From positions 2,310,001-2,342,000 of the forward strand of contig JALDRA010000001.1 in the NCBI GenBank assembly GCA_031316235.1: a DNA stretch of 32,000 bases, in the 5' to 3' direction. The stretch is from Candidatus Scalindua sp. (GTDB lineage Bacteria > Planctomycetota > Brocadiia > Brocadiales > Scalinduaceae). The notes under the pieces are model-generated. The model searched no databases. It saw nothing but the letters and a program-made list of their open reading frames with translations, and had not been told where the DNA came from. This document shows positions 3,333 through 31,915 of the stretch, piece by piece (position 1 is the first letter of the stretch; each line of letters opens with the position of its first letter). The position numbers and the translations under genes are program-made.

Positions 3333-3444
3333 TATACTCATCTTACAATGGTTTTCGGATACTATCCGAGATAAAATTGAGCGAGTATACCTTCACCAGG
3401 ATCTGGTTTCCGGTAAAACCGAAAACCAGATCGGCTTTAGTATA
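3333..3444 (+). repeat. Full-length 112-bp modular interspersed element (modules A+B), copy 1
   Basis: TATACTCATCTTACAATGGTTTTCGGATACTATCCGAGATAAAATTGAGCGAGTATA + CCTTCACCAGGATCTGGTTTCCGGTAAAACCGAAAACCAGATCGGCTTTAGTATA. Near-identical to the copies at 8082, 19005 and 30542. Confidence 0.95.
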
Positions 3445-3538
3445 TCATCGAAGCAATGTGATGTGCAAGTGTGGAAGCCTGGTTGTCAAGTGAAATGTCC
3501 TGTGAGACGGCCAGGTTGAAGGGGGCCAGAAAAACCCT

Positions 3539-4774
3539 TCATTTATTTGGTTTGATTTTCCTTTCTATCCCAATTTGATTTAGCGAGTAGATGTTTAACA
3601 CCCCGTAATGATCTGAGGCCGGCAGCCCATCTTGATCTTTGGTGAGTCCAAACAGTTCTTGTCTGAGGCGGGCATTAGGCAAGAAAGAATCCACAAATAT
3701 ATAATCAATTCTTTTGGGACGTAACATATCTTCCTGGAACGCAGAAAGAATCTCGGCCTGAGCAGTGCTTGATGCCTTGGAAACGGCCCTATCCAAAATT
3801 TGTGGGATTATCGTTTCAACGTCTTCGACAATGAGATCATTCCCATCAGGATCCCAGGTATAGAGCTCTTTGTCACGAATGGCCATCTCATGAGTATCGA
3901 GCAGGCCGAGTTTTAACGCTTTCTTGTATTCGCGGGAGTAAGGATCAAAATTAAAGTCTCCACCCACCAAGATGCCGGCATATCCGCCACTTTTTTGTAA
4001 TCGTTTGAGTTCTTCCATCAATAGGCGGAGCCCTCTCTTGCGCTTGCGTTTTGATTTTTTAAAGGGCTTGCTGATTTGAGAATAAAGCTTCGATTGCTTT
4101 CCACCTGTCAATTCTTTTACCTGTTTCAGAAATTTGATGCTGTTGTCAAAACTTGAATGCTTGTGTACATTCGCAACCAGGTATTTGGTTCCGGAACCTG
4201 GCCACGTGATCTCGGAGATCAAGGCGTAACGCAACTCCTGTAATTGAAAACCCCATGTGCTGCGACACATCCCGAAACTGCCGAGAGTCTTCAGGCTCTT
4301 TATTCGATTTAACCGGTACTTTTTTTTCGCTAAGGTCACCATCCCGTTATTGAGGTCAGAGATTAGGGCTAAGTTCTTGCTCAAGCGCAGTCCGCAAGCG
4401 TCTACTTGGTGAATTTCTGAGTATTCAAGGCCGAACTTTCTCAGCGCTTTCACATATTCATCCGCCATTGTGGGTAAAAGATTGACTTCCTGAAGCAAGA
4501 TGATGTCAGGTGCCTCTTTTGCCATTTGATTTACTTGCAGCTGAAACCTGGCCTTCTGTATTTCAGGGGACTCAGTTAGTTCGACCCAATAGGGACCCAC
4601 GTGGAGTCCGTGCCAGACGTTGTAGGTGAGTACCTTGAAGATCTCCGGAGGAGTGGTTTTCAGCTTAGAGACATTTTCAAACTCTCGTAATTGTGGGGAT
4701 GGTCCTGTACACGAAAGCGCTAAGAGTCCCGCGATTATTAATGAGATTGGGATAGAAATAAGTCGGGAAAACAC
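3539..4774 (-). CDS. Endonuclease/exonuclease/phosphatase (EEP) family protein with N-terminal signal peptide (possible lipoprotein)
   Basis: 411-aa ORF with a hydrophobic N-terminus ending LLALSC. EEP motifs present: LTYNVWHG, ILLQEV, GGDFNFDP, SDHYGVL. Confidence 0.8.
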   Translation of the reverse strand: MFSRLISIPISLIIAGLLALSCTGPSPQLREFENVSKLKTTPPEIFKVLTYNVWHGLHVGPYWVELTESPEIQKARFQLQVNQMAKEAPDIILLQEVNLLPTMADEYVKALRKFGLEYSEIHQVDACGLRLSKNLALISDLNNGMVTLAKKKYRLNRIKSLKTLGSFGMCRSTWGFQLQELRYALISEITWPGSGTKYLVANVHKHSSFDNSIKFLKQVKELTGGKQSKLYSQISKPFKKSKRKRKRGLRLLMEELKRLQKSGGYAGILVGGDFNFDPYSREYKKALKLGLLDTHEMAIRDKELYTWDPDGNDLIVEDVETIIPQILDRAVSKASSTAQAEILSAFQEDMLRPKRIDYIFVDSFLPNARLRQELFGLTKDQDGLPASDHYGVLNIYSLNQIGIERKIKPNK

Positions 4775-4923
4775 CTTGTTCCTTTAAGTATTAATTATAA
4801 ACTTATTTAACAGATGGATACTGATAAAAAGTATTTTATATAAAATGAGCAAAACAGAAGCAGTTGGTACACTTTTGGCGATGCGGCAGTCATGTCCATG
4901 TTACCATAAGTTCGATTAAAAGC

Positions 4924-5058
4924 ACACTTTTTTCCGAAGATTTGTGTAATAAATGTAAAAAGTCAGAAAAAGATTTTGTGCGGGAACGAAAGCTTCCTTT
5001 TGGCCATCTTGTTCTTGCTATTTTACGTTTGGGTAAGGCTTCGATAAAACGAGAATAA
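4924..5058 (+). mobile_element. Short N-terminal fragment of a DDE (IS4-like) transposase
   Basis: The translation ...KDFVRERKLPFGHLVLAILRLGKASIKRE resembles the conserved F-x-R-x-RKL-x-F N-terminal motif of IS4-type transposases as I remember it. It ends in a stop exactly where the opposite-strand IS110 fragment begins. Confidence 0.3.
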
Positions 5059-5059
5059 G

Positions 5060-5232
5060 ATAAATTCTTCACATGCCTTGCGTTTACCAATATAACTCCT
5101 TGCTTCAAGGACATTGTGCACTGGACGCCAATATTCTCCGGTACTTTCCATTGCTACTACTGGAGAGGAATTATCACCTGACCATTCATGAAGTTTTAAC
5201 AACTCCCGGGTAAAGGTTGAATACTCCCGCTC
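5060..5232 (-). mobile_element. Frameshifted N-terminal fragment of an IS110-family (DEDD) transposase
   Basis: The minus-strand translation gives FTRELLKLHEWSGDNSSPVVAMESTGEYWRPVHNVLE. After a frameshift it continues GVILVNARHVKNL, the classic IS110 N-terminal pattern (vamEsTGxYW ... lvNaxhvk). It has an in-frame stop upstream and no catalytic C-terminal part. Confidence 0.6.
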
Positions 5233-5463
5233 TCATACAAAATACTTCTCCATGCAGCGGTTCATTTCACACTTTGTGCGAATTTTGCACTATTCTCAAC
5301 CGGAATACAATATCATTGATTCCGCGATTTTTTTTTCCCGTAACAACTCCATTTGAGGGCAGCGAAAAATATTACTGATTAATCTGACTCTCTACGGCAC
5401 ATTTTTTGTTGTTACACAAATTAAGAAAGAGGACAACAGGACGAAGTAAACCGTGTTCAGGTA

Positions 5464-5593
5464 CAATATCAGAATGGGGGAACTTAGTTGCCATGAAGAG
5501 TGTTCTTGTTGTAGAGGACGATAAAAGTCAGCGATTGCTATTACGAGCAGGAACCGGGTTTCGAAGGCTGGGAGGTGGCAACAGCAGCTGATG
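5464..5593 (+). pseudogene. Decayed partial duplicate of the 5' UTR plus first ~34 codons of the downstream response-regulator gene
   Basis: About 130 nt align with 5627-5767. The coding part is about 89% identical by hand alignment over about 100 nt. A 1-nt indel shifts the frame (MKSVLVVEDDKSQRLL then LRAGTGF... and a stop at 5591). Confidence 0.8.
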
Positions 5594-5657
5594 AGAGAAA
5601 ATCCGCAAAATAGAGCCAGACAGATGCAATATCAGAAGGGGGGGGAACTCAATTGCC

Positions 5658-6026
5658 ATGAAGAGTGTTCTTGTTGTAGAGGACGATAAAAATCAGCGTT
5701 TGCTATACGAGCAGGAATTAGGTTTCGAAGGTTATGAGGTGACAACGGCAGCTGATGGCATGGAGGCTTTAGAGAAAGCCTGGGAGATATATCCAGACAT
5801 AATTATAATGGACATAAACATGCCGAAGATGGACGGGCTTGAAGCAATAGGCAGGATTATCGGTAAGAATAAAAATACCCCAATTGTTATACATACCGCT
5901 TACAGCCAGTATAAGGATAAATTTATGTCTTGGGCTGCAGATGGCTATGTTGTTAAATCTCCAGATTTAGCCGAATTAAAAAAGACAATTAATGATGTAC
6001 TTAGAGAGAAATCGGCAGCCGTTTGA
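5658..6026 (+). CDS. Single-domain response regulator (CheY-like receiver)
   Basis: 122 aa: VLVVEDD, phospho-acceptor context IIIMDINMPKMDG, IVIHTAY, YVVKSP. No output domain. Confidence 0.9.
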   Translation: MKSVLVVEDDKNQRLLYEQELGFEGYEVTTAADGMEALEKAWEIYPDIIIMDINMPKMDGLEAIGRIIGKNKNTPIVIHTAYSQYKDKFMSWAADGYVVKSPDLAELKKTINDVLREKSAAV

Positions 6027-6028
6027 AT

Positions 6029-7823: not shown

Positions 7824-8081
7824 TTGAACATCCCTTTCAATAATTTTTTACTATCGTCTCCTGGGGGCAGGACCTGTTTTTCTCTAAAAAACACCCGCTC
7901 TCCTTCCGTACGGAGTGATTATACGTAGAGGTCCGTAAAAGTTCAATGATAAAACAATAAGAAAAAATTGGAAAAAAGTTGAAATCCCGCTGTATTTCTT
8001 TTACTATCAGTATCTATTCAATAAGGGGTTCTTAACATTTGAGAACAGCATTTTGTGTCTGTATATACCTCAAGTTATTTA

Positions 8082-8193
8082 TATACTCATCTCATACTGG
8101 ATTTCGGATAAAATCCGAGATAAAATTGAGCGAGTATACCTTCACCAGGATCTGGTTTCCGGTAAAACCAAAAACCAGATCGGTTTTAGTATA
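8082..8193 (+). repeat. Full-length 112-bp modular interspersed element (A+B), copy 2
   Basis: Same architecture as copy 1. The B 3' arm carries ACCAAAAACC (one extra mismatch). It lies in the divergent region and ends 117 nt upstream of the marC start. Confidence 0.95.
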
Positions 8194-8310
8194 AACGTAG
8201 AAGGAGGTTGGGCCTCCTCCGGCTGCACGTGTTCATACAGGAGAGATGTAACTGGTTAAAATGGATCTCAAGCGGGTTTTACCAGATGCTTACGATATAA
8301 AAACTCAGAT

Positions 8311-8943
8311 ATGGAACTTCTATCCTTTTTCATTTATGCCTTTACCTCTATATTTATCATTGTAAACCCTCTGGGCGGCATTATAACCTTTATTTCCCTA
8401 TCACAGGGGATGACCGTTGCGGAAAAATTACATACGGTTAAACGATCGGTTCTTATCGCGTGCATCCTGGCGCTCTTCTTTGCATTTACCGGAGAGGCTG
8501 TTTTGCAGTTGTTTCATATTACGGTGGACAGCTTGCGCGTCGCGGGAGGTATCCTTCTTTTTCTGATTGCTATTGACATGCTGTATGCAAGAACATCACG
8601 GGAAAGTGTTACACCTGAAGAAATTAAGGATGCTTCCGGAAGAGAGGATGTTTCGGTATTTCCCCTTGCGATACCGCTGCTCACGGGTCCGGGTGCTATC
8701 AGCACGGTAATTGTTGTTATCAGAACAGGCAAGACATGGGAGTTGAAGGCTGTAACAGTGTTTGCCATTATACTGACCTTTGTTCTCACTTACCTTATCT
8801 TCCGATTTGCAGACAGGATCAATAAAATGCTCGGTCTTACGGTCTCTCTGGTAATAACCCGCATCATGGGATTACTGCTTGGTGCGATTTCGGTTGATTT
8901 CGTTGCAACAGGCATATGGAATATCTATAAGTCGTTCTCTTAG
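8311..8943 (+). CDS. marC: MarC family (UPF0056/NAAT) integral membrane protein
   Basis: 210 aa with about 6 hydrophobic segments. It has the N-terminal FIIVNPLGGIITFISL signature and the GPGAIST motif. Confidence 0.8.
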   Translation: MELLSFFIYAFTSIFIIVNPLGGIITFISLSQGMTVAEKLHTVKRSVLIACILALFFAFTGEAVLQLFHITVDSLRVAGGILLFLIAIDMLYARTSRESVTPEEIKDASGREDVSVFPLAIPLLTGPGAISTVIVVIRTGKTWELKAVTVFAIILTFVLTYLIFRFADRINKMLGLTVSLVITRIMGLLLGAISVDFVATGIWNIYKSFS

Positions 8944-9098
8944 ATTTCATGGAGACAATCAGTAACTACCGGCATTACCCGCTCCCGGTGATTTGAGGAA
9001 GCCGGATAAAAGGTGGAATCAATCCTGAATTTATGTCCGGGGATTCACTGCCCAAAAGAGAGGTAAGGCGGGTGGCAGGAGTCGAAGATTTTACCTAC

Positions 9099-11228
9099 TC
9101 ATATGACACGGCTTGCTATTCCGATTTCTTTCAGTGCCGGCTGGTAAAACTTTAACGCGTATTCTTTCACCATCCGGCGCGCGCTGAATGCCGCTCCGGT
9201 GCTTTTTATAGACTCCTTCATGAATCTGATCCACTCATGAGGGACCCCGTCCTGATCCTGGTTGTAATAAAGAGGAACAACATCATTCTCCAGCAGCCGA
9301 TAAATTGATTCAGCATCTCCGGTATCTGATCCGCTTTCCTTAAAGGCCCAGCCGTTTTTACCGTTGTACCCCTCCAGCCACCATCCGTCAAGTATACTGA
9401 GCTGTGGGACACCATTGAGAGAAGCCTTCATTCCGCTTGTCCCTGAAGCTTCCATCGGCGGAACTGGATTATTAAGCCAGACATCAACACCGTGCACAAG
9501 ATATTGAGCAAGTTGTTCATTATAATTCTCAATAAAGGCGATATGGCCGCCCATGGCAGGGTCACAGACCTTTTGAAAGACGTCCTGAAGTATTCTCTTA
9601 CCCTCGTTATCGGCGGGATGTGCCTTTCCCGCGAATATTATCTGCACCGGCCTCCACCGGTTATTGAGCAGCCGTTTCAGCCGCTCCAGGTCTGAAAAGA
9701 TCAGGTATGCCCTCTTATAGGTTGCAAAGCGGCGTGCGAATCCGATGGTTAAGGCGAGAGGATCCAGAAGCGTGCCTCCCGAGATCACTTTCAGCGGATC
9801 AGCCCTCTCTTCCACCCACTCTTTGCGTGCAAGTTCCCTCACCGCATTTACCAGTTTTGTCTTCGTCCACCTGGAAACATGCCATAGATCCTGGTTCGGA
9901 ATGTCCTCAACAGCCTTCCACAGGTCGGGACTATCGTGATGCTGTTTCCAGTCCGGGCCGAGATACTTGTTAAAAAGGAGTTCCATCTTCGGCTCTAGCC
10001 AGGTAGGCACATGCACACCGTTGGTTATGTAATCAATGGGCACATCATCTACTTTTTTATCGGGCCACAGAGACTTCCACATTTGACGGGAAACTTCTCC
10101 ATGTTTTTTACTGACACCGTTATGATATGCCGTCAGATTCAAGGCAAGTACAGACATATTAAATCCGGCGGAAGGATTTTCCGGGTGCAGCCCCAGACGG
10201 TAGAAAGAGTCACGGCTCAATCCGAAATGGGAATAGTAACTGCTGAAATATTTGTCCATGAGAGGGAACGGGAAGACGTCAATTCCCGCGGGAACCGGGG
10301 TATGGGTTGTAAAAATTGATGTTTTCCGGGTGTTCTGGACAGCATCATCATAGCTCATGCCACTGGTCATTCTGCTTCTTACTCTCTCAAGCAGTGCAAA
10401 TGAGGTGTGTCCTTCATTGAGATGCAAAAGGTAATCATCTATTCCAACTGCCCGCAGGGCCTCACTGCCGCCGATTCCGAGAACAAGCTCCTGCAGCAGC
10501 CGGTGTTCGATGTCGCCGACGTACAGTTGTGATGTGATTGACCTGTGCCAGGGGACATTTATTTCAACATCGGTATCCATGAGATAGAGGGTGACCCGGC
10601 CGACATCCACTTTCCAGAGGGCAACATGGATCGGGGGATCAGTAAATGGAACTTTAACTACCAGCTGTTTCCCCTCTTTATCAAGGACTCTCGTAATAGG
10701 GGTTACGTCTCTGTCCAGGGTTTCATCGACACTTTCCTGCCAGCCGTCAATACGGATTCTCTGTCGGAAGTACCCTTCGGGATACATAAATCCGATTGCA
10801 ACCAGCGGAATACCGAGGTCACTGCACTCCTTGATATGGTCTCCGGCCAGAAAACCCAGCCCTCCGGCATAAAAGGGAAGGGAGTGATGCAGGCCGTACT
10901 CCGCAGAAAAATAGGCAATCGGCGGACAGGCTGCACAGGTAATTTTCTCAGTGAACCAGCAGCTGAGTATTTCCATGTAACGGTTGAATTCAGTCATGGT
11001 TTTATCATAGTGTTTCAGATACTGGGGATTATTTGCCGCTGATTCCAGAATCTCAGCAGGAATTTCCCTGAGCATCCTGACAGGATCGTGAACGCACTCT
11101 TTCCATGCCTGCCTGTCCAGCGATTTAAAAATCAGTCGCGTCGCCGGATTCCAGCTCCACCACAGATTATATGCCAACCCGGCGAGACCGTTTATTCTTT
11201 CCGGTATGTTAGGAAAATTTTTTGTCAT
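9099..11228 (-). CDS. glgP: Alpha-glucan (glycogen/maltodextrin) phosphorylase, GT35, short bacterial type
   Basis: 709 aa. N-terminal LAYNLWWSWN region, PLP-lysine motif EASGTSGMKASLNG, NEGH, TNGV. Confidence 0.9.
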   Translation of the reverse strand: MTKNFPNIPERINGLAGLAYNLWWSWNPATRLIFKSLDRQAWKECVHDPVRMLREIPAEILESAANNPQYLKHYDKTMTEFNRYMEILSCWFTEKITCAACPPIAYFSAEYGLHHSLPFYAGGLGFLAGDHIKECSDLGIPLVAIGFMYPEGYFRQRIRIDGWQESVDETLDRDVTPITRVLDKEGKQLVVKVPFTDPPIHVALWKVDVGRVTLYLMDTDVEINVPWHRSITSQLYVGDIEHRLLQELVLGIGGSEALRAVGIDDYLLHLNEGHTSFALLERVRSRMTSGMSYDDAVQNTRKTSIFTTHTPVPAGIDVFPFPLMDKYFSSYYSHFGLSRDSFYRLGLHPENPSAGFNMSVLALNLTAYHNGVSKKHGEVSRQMWKSLWPDKKVDDVPIDYITNGVHVPTWLEPKMELLFNKYLGPDWKQHHDSPDLWKAVEDIPNQDLWHVSRWTKTKLVNAVRELARKEWVEERADPLKVISGGTLLDPLALTIGFARRFATYKRAYLIFSDLERLKRLLNNRWRPVQIIFAGKAHPADNEGKRILQDVFQKVCDPAMGGHIAFIENYNEQLAQYLVHGVDVWLNNPVPPMEASGTSGMKASLNGVPQLSILDGWWLEGYNGKNGWAFKESGSDTGDAESIYRLLENDVVPLYYNQDQDGVPHEWIRFMKESIKSTGAAFSARRMVKEYALKFYQPALKEIGIASRVI

Positions 11229-17222: not shown

Positions 17223-17242
17223 GGAAAATTTTCTCTCATACC

Positions 17243-17406: not shown

Positions 17407-17522
17407 TATAGAGTGTGCGAACGAAAACCCGGTGTTTGACCAGCCAGGACGGATATGTACCGGAATTTGAGAATTTATCAATAAAAATCTCTTAGAGGGG
17501 TTTTACAGAAATACCAGCTCAT

Positions 17523-18530: not shown

Positions 18531-18614
18531 GGTTTTGTTCTCCTTTGATCTGCGATAAGCTTCTCAATACTCTATTACCGGGCATTAGTATAAGCAAACA
18601 AAATTATCACCCCT

Positions 18615-18920: not shown

Positions 18921-19004
18921 GTGAGGAAAAAAGTGGTTGTGAAGAAATTAAGAATGATATATTATCCGGTATGAATTGCATCACGATAAAACACAAAATA
19001 ATGA

Positions 19005-19116
19005 TATACTCATCTCATAATGGTTTTCGGATACAATCCGAGATAGATTTGAGCGAGTATACCTTCACCAAGATCTGGTTTCCGGTAAAACCGAAAACCA
19101 GATCGGTTTTAGTATA
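19005..19116 (+). repeat. Full-length 112-bp modular interspersed element (A+B), copy 4
   Basis: TATACTCATCTCATAATGGTTTTCGGATACAATCCGAGATAGATTTGAGCGAGTATACCTTCACCAAGATCTGGTTTCCGGTAAAACCGAAAACCAGATCGGTTTTAGTATA. It ends 128 nt upstream of the MBL gene start. Confidence 0.95.
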
Positions 19117-19244
19117 ATTACGTGTGTGGAAATTTCACGGTAGCCCTCACTTCGACTCTTAGCCCGAAAAAGCTGTTCCTGCTGGTGCTCAGTGAGATGC
19201 AGCTCTGTGCGGATTCGAGATATCCAACTTAGGAGATTGCTTTT

Positions 19245-20636: not shown

Positions 20637-20710
20637 TTTGTAGTGCTGGCGTTAAAAATATTAACCGGGGAGGGTGTCAGATTTTATACTATAGTCTCTC
20701 TCGCTCTTTA

Positions 20711-20767
20711 TATACTCATCTTATATTGGTTTTCGGATAAAATCCGAGATAAAATTGAGCGAGTATA
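20711..20767 (+). repeat. Module A alone (57 bp) of the interspersed element
   Basis: TATACTCATCTTATATTGGTTTTCGGATAAAATCCGAGATAAAATTGAGCGAGTATA, lying between convergent genes. Possible scraps of another copy sit just upstream at 20679-20710 (CAGATTTTATACTA, CTCGCTC). Confidence 0.9.
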
Positions 20768-20791
20768 CCAGTAAAGCAGAAAAATAGAGCA

Positions 20792-22105
20792 TTAAGCAGC
20801 TTTTCCATCATTTGTTTTAAACTCTTTCAAGAGCCGCAGAAATAATAGAGGAATAAGGCTCATGAAAGAGGAAATAATTACCATCCCGGTAAAACCATGA
20901 CCTGGTTCCTGATAAACAACTTTTCCATCGACATATTGTATGATACCGAAGAAATCAAAAACTTTTCCACCTACCCATGCCCCGGTCATTGAACCGATAT
21001 TACAGAGACTCATCATGACCGCAAATACCGTACCTTCAATCCCTTTCGGGCACGCCCGAACCGCAACTCTCATCGAACAAACAAACCCGATCATGGATAC
21101 AAAAGAGCCTATGATAAAAATACAAAGCAGTAAGGTGTAGTTATAAACTGTCCAGACATAGGTCAAATTAATTCCTGCTCCGATAAGAAGTGTTATCTTG
21201 AGTATTATTCTTATATCAAATTCCTGTATATATTCCCTGTAATAGCGTAATCCCAGTAATCCGCCAAATGAGCCAGCCGCACTTACTATTCCGCGCATAA
21301 AAGGGGAATAACCAAGTATCTTTCCCATAAAATACTGCATGGCGCTCGGGCTGAATAAGGGGGCCATATTCAGGATGAATAAAAATATGGCAGCGGCACT
21401 CAAAAATTTCACTGAGCCTTCATAAGACGATTTCTTGAAAAGTTTTCCCCAGTCTTTAGTAAAATGGGCATTTTTATCTTCTTCTTTCAGAGACCATAAA
21501 GCGACAATACAGAGAGCGAGAGGGGCAAGTGACATCAGTGCAAACGTAAATTTCTCTCCACAGAAATTTATCAGGAATCCTCCTCCTATACCGCTCAGAC
21601 AAGCTCCGAAACATCTCATTTCCCACATTATGGCCTGTATAATACCCTCTTGACCGCTATCTTTTTTGCAGATATCAACACCATGCGCGTCGCAGGCAAC
21701 ATCGGTAAAACCGAATCCAAGATTGAGGCAAAACGCGGCAAATACAAACATCCAATAGGAATTAACTATGCTTCCTATTGCAACAGAGCTTGAAAAAACG
21801 ATAAAGCTGCAGATGATAATATACGGTATCCTGCGTCTTCCAAAAATCGGAAAATGGTCGGAAATAAACCCCCAGAACGGTTTAATAAACCAGGGGAACT
21901 GCATCAATATCGTCATTGATACAAGTTCTCCCATGGTTAAATTAAATTGCCTCTGCAGGTAGATCGGGAAAGCAATACCTGTTATTCCGAATACGAGTCC
22001 CTGGGCAAAGTAAGAAGCCGAGAAAATCCGGTATCGTGCTTCAAACAGCTTTTTTGTTGAATGCCAACCTAAAAAATCTTTGATTACAACAATTGACTTG
22101 ATCAT
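20792..22105 (-). CDS. MFS transporter, folate-biopterin transporter (BT1)-like
   Basis: 437 aa with about 12 hydrophobic segments. N-terminal SYFAQGL motif typical of the BT1 family. Confidence 0.7.
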   Translation of the reverse strand: MIKSIVVIKDFLGWHSTKKLFEARYRIFSASYFAQGLVFGITGIAFPIYLQRQFNLTMGELVSMTILMQFPWFIKPFWGFISDHFPIFGRRRIPYIIICSFIVFSSSVAIGSIVNSYWMFVFAAFCLNLGFGFTDVACDAHGVDICKKDSGQEGIIQAIMWEMRCFGACLSGIGGGFLINFCGEKFTFALMSLAPLALCIVALWSLKEEDKNAHFTKDWGKLFKKSSYEGSVKFLSAAAIFLFILNMAPLFSPSAMQYFMGKILGYSPFMRGIVSAAGSFGGLLGLRYYREYIQEFDIRIILKITLLIGAGINLTYVWTVYNYTLLLCIFIIGSFVSMIGFVCSMRVAVRACPKGIEGTVFAVMMSLCNIGSMTGAWVGGKVFDFFGIIQYVDGKVVYQEPGHGFTGMVIISSFMSLIPLLFLRLLKEFKTNDGKAA

Positions 22106-22577
22106 TGGTAAAGAAGAAAAAACGGTAAACTTTTATTAGCTCACCCAAATTCAAGATTAAAAATAGGTATATATGGTAGCTAAGTCAAGATAAATCAGAG
22201 AACGAATTTTCTATAATTCACATGGCAGCAGCTGCTCCTTCAGTGGTATCTTCGGATTGCACCGAAATAATGTTCCCGGGACAACATGTCCTCACTGAAT
22301 CATTACTTTTTATCGTGTCACAGTACAAGAGGCTCTTTCCTGAATTATCAACAGGCTAAATGAGTGAAGATTGGAATCAATATCAGATAGACAGACCGGT
22401 TGACATCTGGTATTATGGAGTAAAAAATTTTTTAAAATTTTTGTGTTTTCAGGAGCGTTACCTGTCAACCCGGGAAAACCCGCTGATGGTCATGAAAAAG
22501 TTTATCGGAAATGATTATCTGAATCACAACCCTGGCGATCTTTCTCCCCGCTGTAGCAGGGCAGCAACTCAGGAGCG

Positions 22578-22651
22578 CAGAGCCTGGTTGGAGTATCACT
22601 TGCCCCGTTTTTTCTCGGATAGTATCCGAAAACCATTATCAGTTGCGTATA
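22578..22651 (-). repeat. Partial interspersed element, minus orientation (module A plus first ~16 nt of B)
   Basis: The reverse complement reads TATACGCAACTGATAATGGTTTTCGGATACTATCCGAGAAAAAACGGGGCAAGTGATACTCCAACCAGGCTCTG. Confidence 0.8.
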
Positions 22652-22762
22652 TTCCGGCTTGATACGCAATTGAATTTAACTCGACACCTGTCAAGTTTTG
22701 TGTTAAGTTGAAATGCCTGTTAAAGAATGGAGGGTGGGTATAGCCAGTAGATGAAAATCAGA

Positions 22763-24753
<1,991 letters not shown>

Positions 24754-24768
24754 GGAGGAGAAACGCTG

Positions 24769-25044
24769 TTGGGAGACCTGAGCAGGAAAATTGAAAAGAA
24801 AGAGGCCAGAAAAATGAAGGCACGGGCCGATAAGGACAAAGGTGTTCTGTTCGGGCTCGGTATGTTCGGTCTTGTGGGATGGTCCGTAGCGATTCCCATG
24901 CTGCTGTTTCTCGGTATCGGGATCTGGATAGACGCCAGGTGGCCTTCAAAACACTCATGGACCCTTATGATGCTTATTATTGGAATGATTACCGGGTGTT
25001 GGAACGCGTGGTACTGGGTAAAGAAACAGAGCAGGGGAGAATGA
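24769..25044 (+). CDS. atpQ: N-ATPase accessory membrane protein AtpQ (AtpZ/AtpI-like)
   Basis: 91 aa. TTG start 8 nt after GGGAGGAG. A basic N-terminus is followed by two TM helices (GLGMFGLVGWSVAIP..., WTLMMLIIGMITG). The operon position matches. Confidence 0.75.
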   Translation: MGDLSRKIEKKEARKMKARADKDKGVLFGLGMFGLVGWSVAIPMLLFLGIGIWIDARWPSKHSWTLMMLIIGMITGCWNAWYWVKKQSRGE

Positions 25045-25068
25045 GACTGTTGATGGCATGGAGAAAAG

Positions 25069-25368
25069 ATGGGATTCGTTTTTGAAATATTTTCTTTCGT
25101 GACGCCCTTTTTGGCAGGTATCTTTGCGAGTTTATTCTATCACATCGGGCTCTGGTGGACAGTAAAAGCGCTGCCATCGTCACAAAGACCTGCTCTTCTG
25201 AGTATAGGAAGCTTTTATATCAGGATGGGAGTAACACTATTTGTTTTCTATCTTGTAATGAATAACAGCTGGCAGCGTCTTGTAGTATGCCTGCTGGGGT
25301 TTCTTGTGGTAAAGTACACAATGACGCACATGCTGAAACCGGGAGAAAATGCTTCCAGGTTTAAATAA
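25069..25368 (+). CDS. atpR: N-ATPase accessory membrane protein AtpR
   Basis: 99 aa with three hydrophobic segments. It is located between atpQ and atpB, as in described N-ATPase operons. Confidence 0.7.
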   Translation: MGFVFEIFSFVTPFLAGIFASLFYHIGLWWTVKALPSSQRPALLSIGSFYIRMGVTLFVFYLVMNNSWQRLVVCLLGFLVVKYTMTHMLKPGENASRFK

Positions 25369-25406
25369 ATGATTGTTAAGATTCATTGATTATAGAGGAT
25401 TAACTA

Positions 25407-26105
25407 TTGAAAATCAGTCCTGATTTGATCATATTCTGGCAGTGGGGAGATGTTACGTTAAACGCTACGATAGTCTTTACCTGGGTAATCATGATCTTCC
25501 TGACTATCTGTTCGTGGGTAGTAACCAGAAAACTCACCACAGAAACAAAACTCTCACGCTGGCAGAATATCCTTGAAATTCTCGTTACGTGGATCCAGGG
25601 CGAGATAGAGGCTATCAGTCACCGTGAAACATACCGGTACCTGCCGTTTGTAGGAACGCTATTTATTTTTATTGCCGCTTCAAATCTATTGGCCATTATT
25701 CCGTGGTACCAGGCGCCTACCAGTTCTTTGTCCACTACCGTAGCGCTTGCCGTTTGTGTTTTTATTGCGACCCCCCTGTTCGGTATCATGGAAGGAGGGG
25801 TGAAAGAGTATTTTCGGTCATATCTCAAACCTACATTCTTCATGCTGCCATTCAATATTATCGGAGAAATTTCACGCACACTCGCGCTTGCGGTAAGGCT
25901 TTTCGGCAACATCATGAGCGGTTCCATGATAGCGGGGATCCTGCTGTCGGTTATCCCGCTCTTTTTCCCTGTTATCATGCAGGCCTTCGGTCTGCTTACG
26001 GGACTGGTACAGGCATATATTTTTGCCGTGCTGGCAATGGTATACATTGCCTCGGCAATACAGACGCACAAGAGGAAGGATACAAAGGGTGCGGACGTTG
26101 AATGA
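25407..26105 (+). CDS. atpB: N-ATPase a subunit
   Basis: 232 aa. TTG start 7 nt after AGAGGA. The conserved stator arginine context is LAVRLFGNIMSG, with a polytopic hydrophobic profile. Confidence 0.9.
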   Translation: MKISPDLIIFWQWGDVTLNATIVFTWVIMIFLTICSWVVTRKLTTETKLSRWQNILEILVTWIQGEIEAISHRETYRYLPFVGTLFIFIAASNLLAIIPWYQAPTSSLSTTVALAVCVFIATPLFGIMEGGVKEYFRSYLKPTFFMLPFNIIGEISRTLALAVRLFGNIMSGSMIAGILLSVIPLFFPVIMQAFGLLTGLVQAYIFAVLAMVYIASAIQTHKRKDTKGADVE

Positions 26106-26119
26106 GAAGATAGACCGCG

Positions 26120-26178
26120 TATGTTCATCTTATAATGGTTTTTCGGATAATATACTGAAACCAAATCGGTTTTAGTAT
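26120..26178 (+). repeat. Miniature derivative of the interspersed element inside the atp operon (A 5' half plus palindrome of two B termini)
   Basis: TATGTTCATCTTATAATGGTTTTTCGGATA is followed by ATACTGAAACC-AAATC-GGTTTTAGTAT (11-bp stem with one G.T). It lies 14 nt after the atpB stop and 37 nt before the atpE ATG. Confidence 0.85.
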
Positions 26179-26215
26179 TTAACAATTTGATATGATATAA
26201 AGGAGGGAATCGATC

Positions 26216-26494
26216 ATGGACACGCTTGGTTTAATAGGTATCGCTTCAATTATCACTGCAGGTATTACGATAGCGATCGGTTCAATCGGGCCGGCCCTGG
26301 GTGAAGGGCGTGCGGTCTCTCAGGCCCTGCAATCCATAGCGCAGCAGCCTGATGAGGCTAACACAATAACGAGGACGCTTTTTGTGGGACTGGCAATGGT
26401 TGAGTCTACGGCGATATACTGCTTTGTCGTGTCAATGATTCTGCTCTTTGCCAATCCCTTCTGGAACCATTTTATTAAAAATGTTGGAGGATGA
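26216..26494 (+). CDS. atpE: N-ATPase c subunit (proteolipid) with a complete Na+-type ligand set
   Basis: 92-aa helical hairpin with a strong SD, AAAGGAGGG. Helix 1 has GPALGEG and helix 2 has MVESTAIY, with an AQQPDE loop. Confidence 0.95.
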   Translation: MDTLGLIGIASIITAGITIAIGSIGPALGEGRAVSQALQSIAQQPDEANTITRTLFVGLAMVESTAIYCFVVSMILLFANPFWNHFIKNVGG

Positions 26495-27271
26495 TTGGTG
26501 ATTGACTGGTTTACAGTAGGTGCACAGATTTTTAATTTTCTGATTCTTGTTTATCTGCTCAAGCGTTTTCTCTACGGACCTATAATCGCGGCAATAGATA
26601 AAAGGGAAGAGAATATCTCCGCAAGAATCAGGGAAGTAGAGCAGAAAGACATTGCTGCTGAAGAAGAGATAAATCGGTACCGGAAAAAGAATGAGGATTT
26701 TGAGTTGCAGCGCGAAGAGATGCATGCCCGGATGAAGGAGGAAGCCGAGTCTCAGAGGAAACAGCTTATCGAGAATTCCCGTCAGGAGATTGAAGAAATG
26801 AAAACCCGCTGGAATGAATCTATTTTGCAGGAGAGGGATGTGTTCCTGAGAAATCTCAGGAGGCGTGTAATTGAACAGGTTTACGCAATAACAAGACAGG
26901 CCCTTGCCGATCTGGCCGCAACTGATATCGAACACCACATGGTAGACGTTTTTATAAAGAAGATTCATGAATTTACTGAGGCAAAGAGTGGAAATATTAC
27001 CCCTGTTCTCAATGACACGGTATCTGGAATCACGATTGCCACATCCTTTGAATTGACCGTGGATCAGCAAGATTTAATAGTAAAGGCAGTCAGAGAGCTT
27101 CAGACTGACAACAAAGATATCAAATTTATTGTATCGAATGACATACTCTGCGGGATTGAACTCAGGGGAAATGGTTACGTAACCGGCTGGAACCTTGAGG
27201 ATTATCTGAAGTCACTGGAGAAAGATTTTCATAAGGCTATTGAGGCTGGCACCGGGAAGGTAAACAGTTGA
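26495..27271 (+). CDS. atpF: N-ATPase b subunit with delta/OSCP-like C-terminal extension (b-delta fusion)
   Basis: 258 aa. It has an N-terminal TM helix and a long charged coiled coil. The C-terminal IKFIVSNDILCGIELRGNGYVTGWNLEDYLKSL resembles the delta C-terminus (E. coli ...[25 protein letters not shown], from memory). The true start may be the GTG at 26498, 7 nt after GGAGG. Confidence 0.85.
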   Translation: MVIDWFTVGAQIFNFLILVYLLKRFLYGPIIAAIDKREENISARIREVEQKDIAAEEEINRYRKKNEDFELQREEMHARMKEEAESQRKQLIENSRQEIEEMKTRWNESILQERDVFLRNLRRRVIEQVYAITRQALADLAATDIEHHMVDVFIKKIHEFTEAKSGNITPVLNDTVSGITIATSFELTVDQQDLIVKAVRELQTDNKDIKFIVSNDILCGIELRGNGYVTGWNLEDYLKSLEKDFHKAIEAGTGKVNS

Positions 27272-27315
27272 AAATTTTCTGTATGAAACGGAAGTAAAAG
27301 TTTACTGAAAGCAGG

Positions 27316-28926
27316 GTGTATGGCGGGATTACCGAAAAAAGGAGTACGGAATTGAGTGACAGGAATGAGTTGAATACTGTTCTGGATGAAGTCTTTACAA
27401 CTTTTGACCGTGTTATCAAAGAACATCATTATGAACCGACCGCACATGAAACCGGCACAGTCAAATCCGTGGGCAGAGGTATTGCCCTTATAGAGGGATT
27501 GCCAGGCGTGAAGTCCGAAGAGCTGATCATATTTCCCGGAAATTTATACGGAATGGTCTTTAACCTTGACCCGGAAGAGGTCGGAGTTGTCATGCTTTCA
27601 AAGAGTGAAGGATTGCAGGCAGGCAGCACAGTGACCAGGACCGGAAGGGTAATGGATGTGCCTGTGGGGGAAGCACTTCTGGGACGTGTTGTTGACCCGA
27701 CAGCCAGGCCGCTTGATAATGCCGGCATGATTCATTCTATCGAAAGAAAACCGATAGAGCGGGAAGCACCCTCAATTATGGACCGTGAACCGGTAACCGT
27801 TCCCCTTCAGACAGGCCTCAAGGTAGTGGATGCTCTCATCCCGATCGGAAGGGGACAGAGGGAGCTTATACTCGGAGACCGGCAGACTGGAAAGACTGCT
27901 GTTGCCCTGGATACAATTATAAACCAGAAAGATAAGGACGTAGTATGCGTTTACTGTGCGATCGGCCAGCGGAGTTCTTCTGTTGCAAAGCTTATTGAAG
28001 ACCTTCACCTGCACGAAGCAATGGAATATACCATCGTTGTCACGGCATCCGGTGAAGACCCGCCTGGAATGAAATTCATTGCGCCTTATGCGGCAACCTC
28101 CATGGCTGAATATTTCATGGAAAAAGGCAGAGATGTCCTGATTGTATATGACGATTTGACCAGTCATGCGATTGCATACAGAGAACTCTCTCTGCTCCTC
28201 AGACGTCCTCCCGGAAGAGAAGCCTTTCCCGGAGATATTTTTTATATACATTCCCGTCTCCTTGAGCGTGCAACACATCTGAGAAAAGAACTTGGAGGGG
28301 GCTCATTAACGGCTCTGCCCATTGTGGCTACCGAAGCGCAAAATATTGCAGCCTACATTCCCACAAATATAATCTCTATTACGGACGGGCAGATTTATCT
28401 TTCACCCGATCTTTTTCAGAAAGGTATTTTGCCTGCTGTGGACGTCGGCAAGTCGGTATCCCGTGTGGGTGGGAAGACACAGCTTCCCGTATACCGTTCT
28501 GTTGCAGGAAATTTGAGACTCTCCTATTCTCAGTTTGAAGAGCTTGAGAAATTTGCCCGTTTCAGTACACGGCTTGACGAGCAGACCCGAAAGACGCTTG
28601 AAAGGGGCCGCCGTGTGCGTGAGGTGCTCAAGCAGGATCAGTACAAACCCTTTACCGTGACAGAGCAAATCGCGGTGCTTCTGTCCGTTACAGAAGGAGT
28701 TTTTGACAGTTTGCCGGTGGAGGTAATTGGAGAAGCTGCGCAGTCTATCAGGTCATCGGTACGAGAACAGCTGCCTGATATAAGTGAAAAAATTCATACC
28801 GGCAGTAAACTGTCCGATGAAGACAAAAAGGCGATTGTTGCAGCTGCAGGAGCAGTGATTCCAGAAGAGAAAAAAATTGACAACACGTCAGCTCCTCAAC
28901 ATCCTGCCCGAAAGTCAGATCAGTGA
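27316..28926 (+). CDS. atpA: N-ATPase alpha subunit
   Basis: Walker [17 protein letters not shown], and a conserved alpha core. The in-frame TTG at 27352, 7 nt after AAGGAG, is a more plausible start than the GTG at 27316. Confidence 0.93.
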
Positions 28927-29017
28927 GTTGTAAAGCCATGATAAAGTAAAGGGTTGACCCCGGAATACGGAATAAAATTTATGGAATTTAACCGTCTCCT
29001 ACACTAAAAAAGAGAAT

Positions 29018-29905
29018 ATGCAAACCATTAAAACCATCAGGAGAAACATTAAAAGTGCGGAAGATCTTCGAGACATTGTAAAAACCATGCGGACATTGTC
29101 TGCCGTAAATATCCACCATTTTGATCAGGCTGTTGAATCTACGGGTGATTACTACCGGTCGGTTGAAATGGGATTTCAGGTGTTACTCATGGATGAAACG
29201 GTCACCGCACGGGAGCAGAAGGAAGAGAGCAAATGCGGGCTCTATGCCGTTATATTCGGCTCGGATCAGGGGCTTTGTGGAGGTTTTAATGAGCAGATTG
29301 CTGCCTATGCGCTCAAGGAGATTGGAAACGGGAAAACGGTAGAAAAGAGTACCATTGTATGCATAGGCGCGCGCGTGCTCGCGTCTGTTGAGGAGCGAAA
29401 GCAGAAAGTTGCGGAAGTCTTTCCGCTCCCGGGATCGCTTGCGGGTATAACCCCGATAGTTCAGAAGATAGTAATGTCAATTACTAATTTGCAGGCAACC
29501 GGGAAAATCAAAAGAGTCACACTCTTTTATCATAAACTGCTGTCACAGATTTCCTATGAGCCTCATTCCATGACTCTCCTTCCCATTGACCGGGAATGGA
29601 TAGAATCAATCAAACAGAAAAAATGGCCAGGCCGTACACTCCCCTCATTTACCATGGATCGAGAGGACCTTTTTTCCGCGCTTTTCCGTCAGTATATGTT
29701 TGTTTCCCTTCACCGGGCATTCGCAGAATCCATGGCATGCGAAAACGCGGCCCGTCTTCTTTCCATGCAGTCAGCCGAGAAGAATATTGAAGAGAGGCTT
29801 GAACAGCTCAACGCCATTTACCGCAGCGAACGCCAGAGTTCAATTACCAGCGAACTCCTGGATATTGTGTCAGGCTTCGAGGCATTGAGAAAAAAAGGGG
29901 AGTAG
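29018..29905 (+). CDS. atpG: N-ATPase gamma subunit
   Basis: 295 aa. N-terminal IKTIRRNIKSAEDLRDIVKTMRTLSAVN and C-terminal ITSELLDIVSG helices typical of gamma. It is the last gene of the operon. Confidence 0.9.
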   Translation: MQTIKTIRRNIKSAEDLRDIVKTMRTLSAVNIHHFDQAVESTGDYYRSVEMGFQVLLMDETVTAREQKEESKCGLYAVIFGSDQGLCGGFNEQIAAYALKEIGNGKTVEKSTIVCIGARVLASVEERKQKVAEVFPLPGSLAGITPIVQKIVMSITNLQATGKIKRVTLFYHKLLSQISYEPHSMTLLPIDREWIESIKQKKWPGRTLPSFTMDREDLFSALFRQYMFVSLHRAFAESMACENAARLLSMQSAEKNIEERLEQLNAIYRSERQSSITSELLDIVSGFEALRKKGE

Positions 29906-30064
29906 AACGTCACCTTTCACTGATCATTGATCATCTCTATTTCGTCTGATTCCTGAATCTTTTCATTGTTATGGTACTCACTTTTTTCATAATAAAAAAT
30001 CGTACTATACCAAAGCAGGCTGACTCCTTTCGCGTAATTAACACACAAGCGTAGCCGTTTACAC

Positions 30065-30090
30065 AAGTGTACCTGGGTACACTTTTCTTT
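30065..30090 (+). terminator. Candidate intrinsic terminator about 160 nt downstream of atpG
   Basis: AAGTGTAC-CTGG-GTACACTT is followed by TTCTTT. The stem is AT-rich, so this is a weak call. Confidence 0.3.
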
Positions 30091-30472
30091 AAACTGTGGA
30101 ATAGTTACGTTGAGAAACCAGAGAAACAGTAAAATAATTTACCTGTTACTGGTACTTTTCAGGGCCATGCTTTCACTTTCGCTATAGTACGTTTTTCCCC
30201 TTCCTGTCCTGTTTAATCACCTCTATCTGTAAGATCCTCAGATTCATTAACTTATACACGGACAAGGAGTTAAAAAACAATAATGACAGTTATATTCCAT
30301 ATAACTCATCCATTTCATATTTTCCACATGTGATCAAGTTTCCCATTCGATATAATGTTATCGTACACTTTTTTTCTCATAGTGATTTTAAATTCAGAAA
30401 CATGTCATCTCTGGTATAAAATTTGTTATATATACATATATAGAGTGCATACTGCTTTATCGTGTTCGGAAG

Positions 30473-30498
30473 CTGGTTTTCCAGTCGGGTTTAAGTTA
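30473..30498 (+). repeat. Decayed mini B-like module
   Basis: CTGGTTTTCCAGTCGGGTTTAAGTTA compares with canonical ...CTGG..stem..CCAGATCGGTTTTAGTATA. Confidence 0.35.
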
Positions 30499-30541
30499 GC
30501 AAGCAGGGCATTCTTTCTACAGGCGTAGTAAGATATATACT

Positions 30542-30650
30542 TATACTCATCTCATAATGGTTTTCGGATAAAATCCGAGAAAAAACGGAGCGAGTATATC
30601 TTCACCAGGATTTGGTTTCCGGTAAAACCGAAAACCAAATCGGTTTTATA
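30542..30650 (+). repeat. Full-length (109-bp) modular interspersed element (A+B), copy 8, with a compensated stem substitution
   Basis: TATACTCATCTCATAATGGTTTTCGGATAAAATCCGAGAAAAAACGGAGCGAGTATATCTTCACCAGGATTTGGTTTCCGGTAAAACCGAAAACCAAATCGGTTTTATA. Confidence 0.95.
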
Positions 30651-30759
30651 ATTGATCTCTCCTCGCATTTTTGATTTTTTATTTACGTTTCCACCGCAAT
30701 AAGTATCATACAAAAAATCGAACTGTTAGTTGTTTGTTGATGAGATGAGCTTTTCATTT

Positions 30760-31737
30760 ATGAAAAAAATAGTTATTTTATCAACAGGTATCGTTCTTGG
30801 TTTGATTATTCTGCTGGCCATTCTGATAACCGTCAAAGACCGCATCATTAAATCCACTATAGAGATTGTTTCCAGGCAGGTTATGGGTGTTGAAACTGTT
30901 GTCGATCAGGTTTCTCTGGGCATTATAAAGCAGTCAGTTTCCATCAGGGGTTTGCGGCTGTATCAGCCTGAATCGTTTCCTGAAGGGATATTTATTGATG
31001 TCACGGAGATCAGTGGGTCCTGTAGGATAGCATCGTTTCTAAGAAAAAAAAATCATATTCCCAAACTGGTTCTGAATATCAAAGAAGTAATCTTGATAAA
31101 GGATAAATCCGGAAATCTTAATGTCGATGCTTTAAAAATTGTCCGGGAAAAGGAAATCAAGACTCAGGATGAAAAAGCAGAAATAGCTTTCCAGATTGAT
31201 GAAATGATCCTTACAATTGATAAGGTTATCTACAAACAGTACAGTCAGGATGACAAGCCGGTCATTAAAGCTTTTGACATAGGAGTTAAGGACGAGAAAT
31301 ACGAAAATATTACCAGCCCGCAACAACTTGCCGGCAAAATTTTACAGACAGTTTTGGAGCCTATGGCAGCCAGGGCAGGATTGAAAAGCGCAGCTATCTA
31401 CGGTATTGCCTCGATAACCGGTATAGGAATGATCCCTGTGGCGGCAGGTGCTGTTCTTTTTGGCAAAGACCATGCCCTTACAGAGCTAGATCAGGATTCT
31501 CGGGTAGTATATGAAGCCTGTGTGGCAACGCTAAGGAAATTGGGAGATGTGAGCAAAGAGAATAAAGAGAACGGGATAATTAAAGGGAATGCAAGCGGTT
31601 GCAGCATTAGCATAGAGCTGACAAAAACAAAACATGACAAGATACAGGTAAAGGTGTCCGCCCGGAAACTACTTTGGCCGAAACCAAAGATTGCCGGTGG
31701 TATCCTGTACGAGATAACTCAAAACCTGAAGGATTAA
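30760..31737 (+). CDS. Membrane-anchored hypothetical protein (AsmA-N-like N-terminal region; C-terminus reminiscent of DUF3568)
   Basis: The ORF is open from the TTG at 30730. MKKIVILSTGIVLGLIILLAIL at 30760 looks like the real signal-anchor start. The domain assignments come from remembered family patterns only. Confidence 0.6.
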   Translation: MKKIVILSTGIVLGLIILLAILITVKDRIIKSTIEIVSRQVMGVETVVDQVSLGIIKQSVSIRGLRLYQPESFPEGIFIDVTEISGSCRIASFLRKKNHIPKLVLNIKEVILIKDKSGNLNVDALKIVREKEIKTQDEKAEIAFQIDEMILTIDKVIYKQYSQDDKPVIKAFDIGVKDEKYENITSPQQLAGKILQTVLEPMAARAGLKSAAIYGIASITGIGMIPVAAGAVLFGKDHALTELDQDSRVVYEACVATLRKLGDVSKENKENGIIKGNASGCSISIELTKTKHDKIQVKVSARKLLWPKPKIAGGILYEITQNLKD

Positions 31738-31833
31738 AAAGCACTGTGTGGAATACTTAAGGCTACCGGTACGCATCACAGGTAAAACGGATCTTGCATT
31801 ATTTATAGTTTCGTAAAACTTAAAACATCAGAA

Positions 31834-31915
31834 TTCACCGGGATATTATCGGTTTTAGTATACTCACTCCGTTTTTTCTCGGATTTTATCCGAAACCCCT
31901 TATGAAATGAGTATA
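31834..31915. repeat. Composite: hairpin-deleted B module (+) abutting an inverted module A (-), sharing TATA
   Basis: TTCACCGGGATATTATCGGTTTTAGTATA (31834-31862) overlaps TATACTCACTCCGTTTTTTCTCGGATTTTATCCGAAACCCCTTATGAAATGAGTATA (31859-31915). Confidence 0.85.

Follow-up and report, generated by a model that had tools for sequence, protein, structure and literature searches.

A very dense family of miniature inverted-repeat transposable elements, with a sister family, in Candidatus Scalindua

The locus and its repeats

The stretch of DNA considered here, called the window throughout, comprises 32,000 nucleotides from a Candidatus Scalindua genome (contig JALDRA010000001.1, positions 2,310,001 to 2,342,000), and its intergenic gaps carry copies of a short non-coding repeat that belongs to a new, very dense family of transposable elements of the miniature inverted-repeat type (MITEs). 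The genes around the copies are ordinary housekeeping genes, among them those for a glycogen phosphorylase, an ADP-forming acetyl-CoA synthetase, a beta-CASP nuclease, a class I aldolase and an MFS transporter, and an operon for an N-type ATPase. Four full copies of 112 bp, one expanded copy and five or six truncated ones together account for 3.3% of the window (about 1047 bp). Among marine anammox bacteria, Scalindua is the main genus; to our knowledge, it is known only from enrichments and metagenomes.

The copies had been listed in a first-pass annotation of the sequence, and all of the listed loci exist at the positions given there or a few bases away. The repeat finder returned four copies of about 132 nt (3314-3445, 8063-8194, 18986-19117, and 30523-30654), together with sub-families corresponding to a hairpin A (5 direct and 3 inverted copies) and a hairpin B (5 copies). 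The core of module A, TTTCGGATANNATCCGAGA, occurs exactly 8 times in the 32 kb and never in 100 shuffles, and the core of module B occurs 4 times at no more than one mismatch, against an expectation of 0. A sensitive nhmmer search of the window recovered the loci already listed, with the exception of a weak fragment at 30468-30498, and added none. As had also been noted, confident genes are spared: the open reading frames (ORFs) of the window with Pfam or NCBIfam support contain 0 copies.

Anatomy of the element

The repeated unit is an element of 108 nt, TACTCATCTCATAATGGTTTTCGG...CCGAAAACCAAATCGGTTTTAGTA, which has no coding capacity and is AT-rich, not GC-rich. It lies within a duplicated TA target, so that a full copy begins and ends with TATA. 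Its ends, TATACYCATCNCAWAATGGTTTTCGG, are imperfect terminal inverted repeats of 26 nt that match at 18 of 26 positions when the 5' end, TATACTCATCTCATAATGGTTTTCGG, is set against the reverse complement of the 3' end, TATACTAAAACCGATTTGGTTTTCGG. Each terminal repeat contains one small palindrome built on a common TGGTTTTCGG; these two palindromes are hairpins A and B, the former being additionally closed by TATACTC/GAGTATA. Over 39 unexpanded copies from four to five lineages, the consensus reads TATACTCATCTCATAATGGTTTTCGGATAAAATCCGAGATAAAATTGAGCGAGTATA(A)C(T/C)T(G/T)C(A)ACCAAGATTTGGTTTCCGGTAAAACCGAAAACCAAATCGGTTTTAGTATA, with a mean column identity of 93%. Copy lengths range from 57 to 320 nt and peak at 112-113 nt (39 copies) and at 139-140 nt (19 copies).

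Single-stranded DNA folding of both strands yields the two hairpins described in the first-pass annotation, at -21 and -23 kcal/mol (z -4.9 and -6.7). Across the 39 copies, the local hairpins A and B are 94% paired. The few double changes are one TACACTC/GAGTGTA variant, a UA to CG change in the lineage of the window and a CG to UA change at the apex of hairpin B. End-to-end pairing, in which the terminal repeats pair with each other, reaches 95% but shows no covariation across the copies, so it is neither supported nor contradicted as the relevant structure. The T-G pair of hairpin A is a plus-strand feature and that of hairpin B a minus-strand one. Because the two ends are inverted homologues, these pairs fall on opposite strands, and neither strand is thus favoured as RNA.

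Filled and empty sites

The mobility of the element can be read from a close relative of the window, a 102-kb ENA contig (L122; L-numbers are the labels of the collected loci and contigs) that encodes exactly the ATPase c subunit of the window and is about 96% identical to window positions 17496-31988. Upstream of the aldolase gene, the two sequences differ by two reciprocal insertions within 400 bp. The first is the full plus-strand copy at 19005-19116, which is absent from L122 and defines the TA target-site duplication: L122 reads AATAATGA-TA-ATTACGTG and the window AATAATGA-TA[TACTC...TTAGTA]TA-ATTACGTG. The second is a full copy at L122 1208-1319, in the context AGCAGG-TA[element]TA-CATTG, whose empty counterpart in the window, AGCAGG-AA-CATCG, has exactly 2 nt left at 18699-18700. 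Both sites are consistent with insertion of a 108-nt element and duplication of a 2-bp target. At a locus of Candidatus Scalindua sp. SCAELEC01 (L001), two head-to-head copies share one TA (GAGTA-TA-TACTC).

The flanks of the copies lie in AT-rich surroundings and show a weak preference for A-TA-T, with A in 47% of cases immediately before the first TA and T in 53% immediately after the second; neither a duplication longer than TA nor a conserved tetra- or pentanucleotide is seen on either side. Occupancy varies among the window, L122, L220, L005, and L047. The empty allele predicted for the site at 8082 had 0 matches when metagenomes were scanned, and in the inter-species pairs (L084/L111, L089/L109, and L220/window) the intergenic DNA is too diverged for exact empty sites.

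These observations correspond to what defines a MITE: many dispersed copies with insertion polymorphism between relatives, terminal inverted repeats, a target duplication of fixed length, and a non-coding sequence shorter than about 300 bp. Bacterial MITEs have been described as being under 200 bp, with inverted repeats, terminal TA and target duplications (Delihas review, PMC2229807). Since the element combines terminal inverted repeats and a TA duplication with no coding capacity, it is very likely a MITE moved by a TA-duplicating DDE transposase. The first-pass annotation had offered a non-autonomous mobile element as one of its interpretations, and the empty-site polymorphism between the window and L122 bears it out.

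The same annotation had likened the repeats to REP/BIME clusters (repetitive extragenic palindromic sequences and bacterial interspersed mosaic elements) or to palindrome-associated transposable elements (PATEs) derived from IS200/IS605, whose single-stranded hairpins would be moved by a Y1 transposase (RAYT or TnpA) into a fixed short target with no duplication. The modular mosaic composition, the stable hairpins and the GC-rich, REP-like mini-palindromes nested in some loops (see below) do recall such systems. Y1 transposition, as in REP/RAYT and IS200/IS605, leaves no duplication and uses a fixed target beside one end. Terminal inverted repeats and a 2-bp TA duplication, found together at two clean filled/empty sites, point instead to DDE cut-and-paste transposition. 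Moreover, the flanks hold no conserved tetra- or pentanucleotide beyond TA, the element is AT-rich, its single modules are deletion products, and the window contains no Y1 gene. A Y1-driven origin thus appears extremely improbable.

Occurrence in Scalindua

The family is not confined to the window. A core pattern of 17 specified bases was scanned against one genome per prokaryotic species (596 Gb). Among the matches listed, at least 43 stretches came from Candidatus Scalindua sp. SCAELEC01, at least 38 from Scalindua RBC_AMX3 and at least 8 from a Scalinduaceae metagenome-assembled genome. Also among the matches listed were 31 stretches from elsewhere, of which 2 carry a true copy, one of these being from an uncultured Planctomycetota bin; the remainder are chance matches expected for such a pattern in 596 Gb. 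A profile of the element, here called type 1, was built from the four window copies and run with nhmmer over 0.95 Mb of collected loci, where it gave 155 matches, 87 of them full length. Pairing of 5' and 3' ends yielded 116 complete elements of 57-320 nt in these loci. The copies occupy non-orthologous sites and are present in high number in several Scalindua genomes. The family is therefore real and belongs to the Scalindua lineage, beyond the single locus to which it might have been restricted. In coding DNA, the window and two SCAELEC01 loci share 84-87% identity, which places the window in a Scalindua species other than SCAELEC01.

Searches outside the lineage gave negative results. The type-1 profile had 0 matches in a set of metagenome loci (914 kb) that serves only as a negative control; the phosphorylase orthologues of their source organisms reach no more than 70% identity to that of the window. 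Viral contigs contained 9 exact core matches, all by chance in unrelated sequence, and gave no real match to the profile, and blastn of one copy against a plasmid collection gave no match. Rfam had 0 matches in the whole window at gathering thresholds; one copy searched at E values up to 10 reached at best 22 bits against a gathering score of 90, in line with the earlier remark that the sequence was not a recognised one. Exact-protein look-ups of window genes within 1-17 kb returned only short contigs of the same strain. No account of a Scalindua or anammox MITE was found in the searchable literature.

Position relative to genes

With gene positions taken from crude ORF calls, the copies show no rule in their placement. 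Of the copies flanked by co-directional genes, 33 follow the orientation of these genes and 25 run against it; divergent gaps hold 38 copies and convergent gaps 25, and distances to gene starts resemble distances to gene ends. Only 3 of the 155 matches overlap a long ORF (two at ORF 5' ends and the third by 63 nt), with no clear intragenic insertion. Promoter-like sites are not enriched (46 against 36 +/- 6 in shuffles), nor are terminator-like consensus sites at the copies. The distribution fits insertion at any available TA in non-essential DNA and is unlike that of a terminator, riboswitch or untranslated region (UTR) element. In two further L122 copies (16464-16590 and 18974-19130), the distance from the end of the copy to the Shine-Dalgarno sequence of the gene downstream is 13 nt and about 31 nt, so insertions are tolerated right up against translation starts.

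These data bear on the proposal, also made in the first-pass annotation, that the repeat is a small-RNA or UTR element. According to it, a structured-RNA family (small RNA, UTR, terminator or stabiliser) would account for the conservation, and mobility would be secondary or absent. Several features can be cited for it: hairpin pairing of 94% over 39 copies, including some double changes; a C-module stem that is retained although its loop ranges from about 3 to 11 nt; the GGTTTT that follows hairpin B; and a decayed B at 17364-17392 flagged as terminator-like. Compensatory changes in DNA palindromes can, however, come from intrastrand templated repair in the absence of selection, and the T-G pairs of hairpins A and B lie on opposite strands, favouring no single one. 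Nor do the copies show an orientation bias to genes or a preference for 3' ends, and all types of gap are occupied. Genomes that are 96% identical differ in which copies they carry, Rfam gave no match even at E up to 10, and promoter- and terminator-like sites are not enriched. An RNA function as the cause of conservation is thus very unlikely, and the earlier suggestion finds no support here.

A related view is that the MITE has been partly co-opted, its copies providing binding sites for host proteins or outward promoters through the terminal TATACT, which resembles a -10 hexamer, so that selection would keep the density high. The strong conservation of loops and stems (93% mean column identity over four to five lineages), the density of 3.3% of the window, and three promoter-like matches that use the terminal TATACT as second hexamer are in its favour. 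Recent amplification of a master copy, however, equally predicts high identity. The count of promoter-like sites is not above that of shuffles, no positional rule relative to gene starts is seen, and many copies are decayed or truncated. Co-option of this kind is very unlikely, even if individual copies may affect neighbouring genes.

The search for a partner transposase

If the element is indeed a MITE, a DDE cut-and-paste transposase would recognise its terminal repeats and move copies in trans, and this enzyme would most likely be of the IS630/Tc1-mariner type. Host effects such as hairpins in transcripts, substrates for recombination and deletion, and breaks in assemblies would then be side effects. 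Among the prokaryotic insertion-sequence families as defined in ISfinder, IS630/Tc1-mariner is characterised by duplication of a 2-bp TA, and a duplicated TA target is what is found here. IS630-family insertion sequences have been reported in anammox genomes of other genera (PMC7814187). An IS630-type transposase is accordingly the somewhat favoured candidate.

Several points weigh against this interpretation as a whole. As already noted in the first-pass annotation, no transposase with matching ends is present in the window. The collected Scalindua DNA (about 1 Mb) holds no multi-copy ORF, judged at more than 60% protein identity across loci, and pairs of inverted ends 0.5-3.5 kb apart in it enclose ordinary genes and no transposase. 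The TA duplication rests on two clean sites, one of which has an AA empty allele, albeit of the right length, and no more than 18 of the 26 terminal-repeat positions agree. Preference for IS630 over other families that duplicate 2 bp is an inference from the general features of insertion-sequence families. Finally, the hairpins contain compensatory changes in 10 cells at 4 pairs, a level that 0 of 500 shuffles reach, and a T-G pair is retained in the stem of the C module; because of these two features, a structural constraint beyond transposase binding is possible.

The collected Scalindua DNA does contain other mobile elements, assigned by eye from translations: an IS110-family element, an IS1380-like ORF (encoded in DNA common to L045 and L069) and a group II intron reverse transcriptase. 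Each was considered as a partner and set aside, since none has the ends of the MITE.

The copies in the window

The first full copy, on the plus strand at 3333-3444, consists of TA, the 108-nt element and TA (nhmmer 127 bits, model positions 1-111). It lies between ORF 2961-3341 on the minus strand and a gene of the exo/endonuclease-phosphatase family (3539-4774, minus strand). The former ORF has no family match, and its ATG falls within the terminal 9 nt of the copy (3333-3341). Its real start may lie elsewhere, or it may be supplied by the element. A rival ORF on the plus strand, 3044-3493, spans the whole copy and is probably spurious.

The second full copy (8082-8193, plus strand), located by the profile search, stands upstream of marC (8311-8943). 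Contigs assembled from short reads of the same strain are broken within it. L220, a more distant relative that is 87-92% identical, has neither this copy nor marC between gpgS and the glycogen phosphorylase gene, which lie next to each other there (window 7976-9119 against L220 1413-1586).

The third full copy, at 19005-19116, is the one described above; the Logan contig L121 terminates inside it. Also upstream of the aldolase gene, a 32-nt inverted repeat (18615-18646 and 18889-18920, 91% complementary) encloses 242 bp. L122 has it too, with its extra MITE inserted inside; the repeat is single-copy in the collected DNA and is possibly a regulatory structure.

The last full copy had been annotated as 30542-30650. 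The profile search and the comparison with L122 show it to be a full type-1 copy on the plus strand, as proposed, with its end at 30648: 5 nt (AGTAT) have been lost from the 3' end, whereas the orthologue at L122 13693-13806 retains ...GGTTTTAGTATA. Immediately before it, the presumed copy at 30473-30498 reduces to a weak B-like fragment (30468-30498, plus strand), similar by eye only and below the nhmmer threshold. This fragment lies inside a 535-bp segment (30007-30541) not present in L122. The segment is AT-rich and single-copy in all collected DNA, and both its junctions are at TATAC beside the 30542 copy; it may have been deleted in the relative between short repeats, or inserted at the same TA.

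The repeat at 17243-17406, taken at first for a decayed type-1 copy, is instead a plus-strand hybrid at 17237-17406 between a 182-nt sister family, described below as type 2, and a type-1 3' end. A type-2 hidden Markov model matches 17238-17390 (E 1e-13) and the type-1 model matches 17355-17405. In order, the hybrid comprises a type-2 terminal repeat (CATACCCTTCACAAATTGATTTTCGG...), decayed C-like modules, a type-1 hairpin B and the 3' end ...GGTTTTAGTATA.

Two copies on the minus strand are found further on. At 22574-22651, hairpin A is followed by a linker remnant (nhmmer model positions 1-78); the orthologue in L122 (6361-6468) is full length and preceded by mgtE, and the window copy lies at the edge of a deletion that removed this gene. 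Nearly all of mgtE is lost from the window (22462-22585 aligned with L122 4954-6261) and it is intact in the 96%-identical relative; the remnant has its start codon mutated from ATG to CTG, the end of the deletion lies inside the MITE copy, and ORF 22360-22662 is a spurious hybrid. The expanded copy at 22763-22931 comprises hairpin A, two tandem C modules (AAGTCCTCGGCAC...GTCCGGGGA) and a diverged hairpin B. Its L122 orthologue has one C module in place of two, a 33-nt indel.

The remaining copies are short. A solo hairpin A of 57 nt lies at 20711-20767 (plus strand) and, from comparison with L122, is an internal-deletion derivative. A decayed mini copy of 60 nt (26120-26179, plus strand) sits between atpB and atpE of the N-type ATPase operon and is conserved in L122. 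At 31848-31915, a minus-strand solo hairpin A (31857-31915) abuts a plus-strand 3'-end remnant, ATCGGTTTTAGTATA (31848-31862); L122 has only a short unrelated or decayed stretch at this site, which is thus not a clean empty site.

Apart from the MITE copies, the window contains a tandem duplication of about 165 bp (5476-5757) whose halves are 94% and 85% identical. It spans the ribosome-binding site and first codons of a response-regulator gene (5658-6026), and a short-read contig of the same strain ends there.

Deletion derivatives and exchange between copies

The first-pass annotation treated the modules as units that occur on their own. The site at 20711-20767 contradicts this description. 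Within identical flanks, the window has hairpin A alone and L122 a 57-nt fusion of the 5' and 3' ends that runs through TGGTTT(T/C)CGG, a sequence common to both ends. Two 57-nt forms at one site are explained by two different internal deletions of one ancestral full copy. The same mini form is found elsewhere (twice in L001 and once in L091), and deletions through GGTTT are seen in L005 and L034. Judged from these alignments, single modules and short forms arise from full copies by deletion between internal direct repeats.

Copies of a composite repeat in L008 and L019 have in common a rare variant of the closing stem and differ in their linker variant; this mixture of variants indicates that exchange between copies occurs.

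Sister families and nested modules

Besides the type-1 element, a sister family (type 2) of about 182 nt forms a long near-palindrome with near-perfect terminal repeats of 26 nt, TATACCCATYGCAAAATGGTTTTMGG, and the same TATA ends. It has its terminal repeats in common with type 1 and is represented by about 9 full copies in the collected loci, including L015 4156-4337, L071 4314-4494, L084 3598-3778, and L077 5114-5295; the type-2 part of the window hybrid covers 17237-17390. A third small repeat family, TAGTGYGTGAACGAAAACCCAGTGTTTGA..., has inverted ends of its own and was seen at window 17411-17439, L008 7388-7998, L019 6738-7349, L115 1172-1199, and L001 314-346. It encloses a type-1 MITE in L008 and L019, and one of its arms abuts the window copy that ends at 17406.

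The longer type-1 copies carry additional hairpins at fixed points. The C module, AAGTCCTCGG(3-11 nt)CCGGGGA, follows GAGCGAGTA and was counted 58 times, essentially always within elements, and an F module is located in the linker. The D, E, and G modules are GC-rich palindromes (CCYGCC...GACRGG) of 27, 30, 55, and 74-85 nt. In loop B they always lie between CC(A/G)G and TAAAACC, at the same phosphodiester bond, and a variant of E lies in loop A between CGGA and TAAAATCC. Examples of loop inserts are L041 6573-6741, L120 7658-7823, L108 4428-4650, and L053 300-471. No duplication was seen at the D, E, and G inserts. They can be nested recursively, for example with an inverted D inside a G inside a D. 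Outside the MITEs they are rare: about 0.75 Mb contained about 6 solo copies (among them L118 7110-7175, L010 2969-2996, and L040 2971-3000), some of them again located at a hairpin apex, in that case of another repeat. In MITE loops they are about seven times commoner. E occurs mainly in RBC_AMX3, and D in two species on several backbone variants.

The pattern of D, E, and G may have arisen by recurrent insertion into the loops, or from a few ancestral events that MITE amplification and gene conversion then spread. If recurrent insertion into hairpin loops or single strands were the case, it would be an unusual choice of target for a tiny bacterial repeat. At L106 4514-6205, a single instance, the IS110-family element lies inside the C-module hairpin of one MITE copy, with its transposase split into ORFs 4627-5478 and 5521-5886. 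That the MITE hairpins serve a second layer of mobile DNA as landing pads is conceivable but rather doubtful. The GC-rich mini-palindromes nested at fixed positions are the less ordinary feature of the family and may repay closer study.

Significance and comparison with known systems

The family has practical consequences. A MITE that makes up about 3% of the sequence and lies in most intergenic gaps explains the shattered short-read assemblies of these organisms, whose contigs end inside copies. Insertion polymorphisms offer ready-made strain markers, and the copies are a likely source of deletions and rearrangements, as at the mgtE deletion that ends in a copy. Annotation is affected as well, with spurious ORFs and shifted start codons at copies.

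The nested D, E, and G modules (27-85 nt, GC-rich and sometimes forming a 24-bp stem as an inverted pair) have a REP-like look, and like REP/BIME or REPIN arrays the Scalindua repeats form mosaics of small palindromes in alternating orientation. A REP is a GC-rich palindrome of 20-40 nt with a conserved 5' tetranucleotide and no duplication, whereas the Scalindua element of 108 nt (112 nt with its TA) is AT-rich, has terminal repeats and a duplicated TA, and shows neither a GTAG-type 5' motif nor an accompanying RAYT gene. With the PATEs of IS200/IS605 it shares a small size, lack of coding capacity and subterminal hairpins. PATEs, however, are without terminal inverted repeats, are without a duplication and insert 3' of a fixed tetra- or pentanucleotide, and none of these three properties applies to the Scalindua element.

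ERIC (also called IRU) and BOX are imperfect palindromes of about 127 bp, ERIC having longer variants with inserts at fixed sites and BOX a modular boxA-B-C composition. They resemble the Scalindua element in the imperfect palindrome and in the longer variants or modular composition. BOX differs in being without clear terminal repeats and duplications, and the inserts of ERIC are not GC-rich mini-palindromes in hairpin loops.

The closest analogues are RUP and the Correia elements. RUP is a non-coding, intergenic repeat of about 107 bp with terminal inverted repeats, insertion at TA and about 100 copies per genome, and it has been tied to IS630-Spn1 and TA targets (PMC2229807). It has no sequence similarity to the Scalindua element, whose density appears higher and which carries nested GC-rich inserts; a matching IS630-family element is known for RUP, and none was found for the Scalindua element. 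The Correia elements of Neisseria (CREE or NEMIS) are MITEs of 100-160 bp with 26-nt inverted repeats, TATA ends after TA duplication, size classes due to internal deletion, hundreds of copies and no known transposase (in part PMC2229807). They differ in sequence and in host phylum, and have documented IHF sites, promoters and RNase III processing. The Scalindua family and its sister family thus add a planctomycete example to the RUP/Correia class and open no new mechanism.

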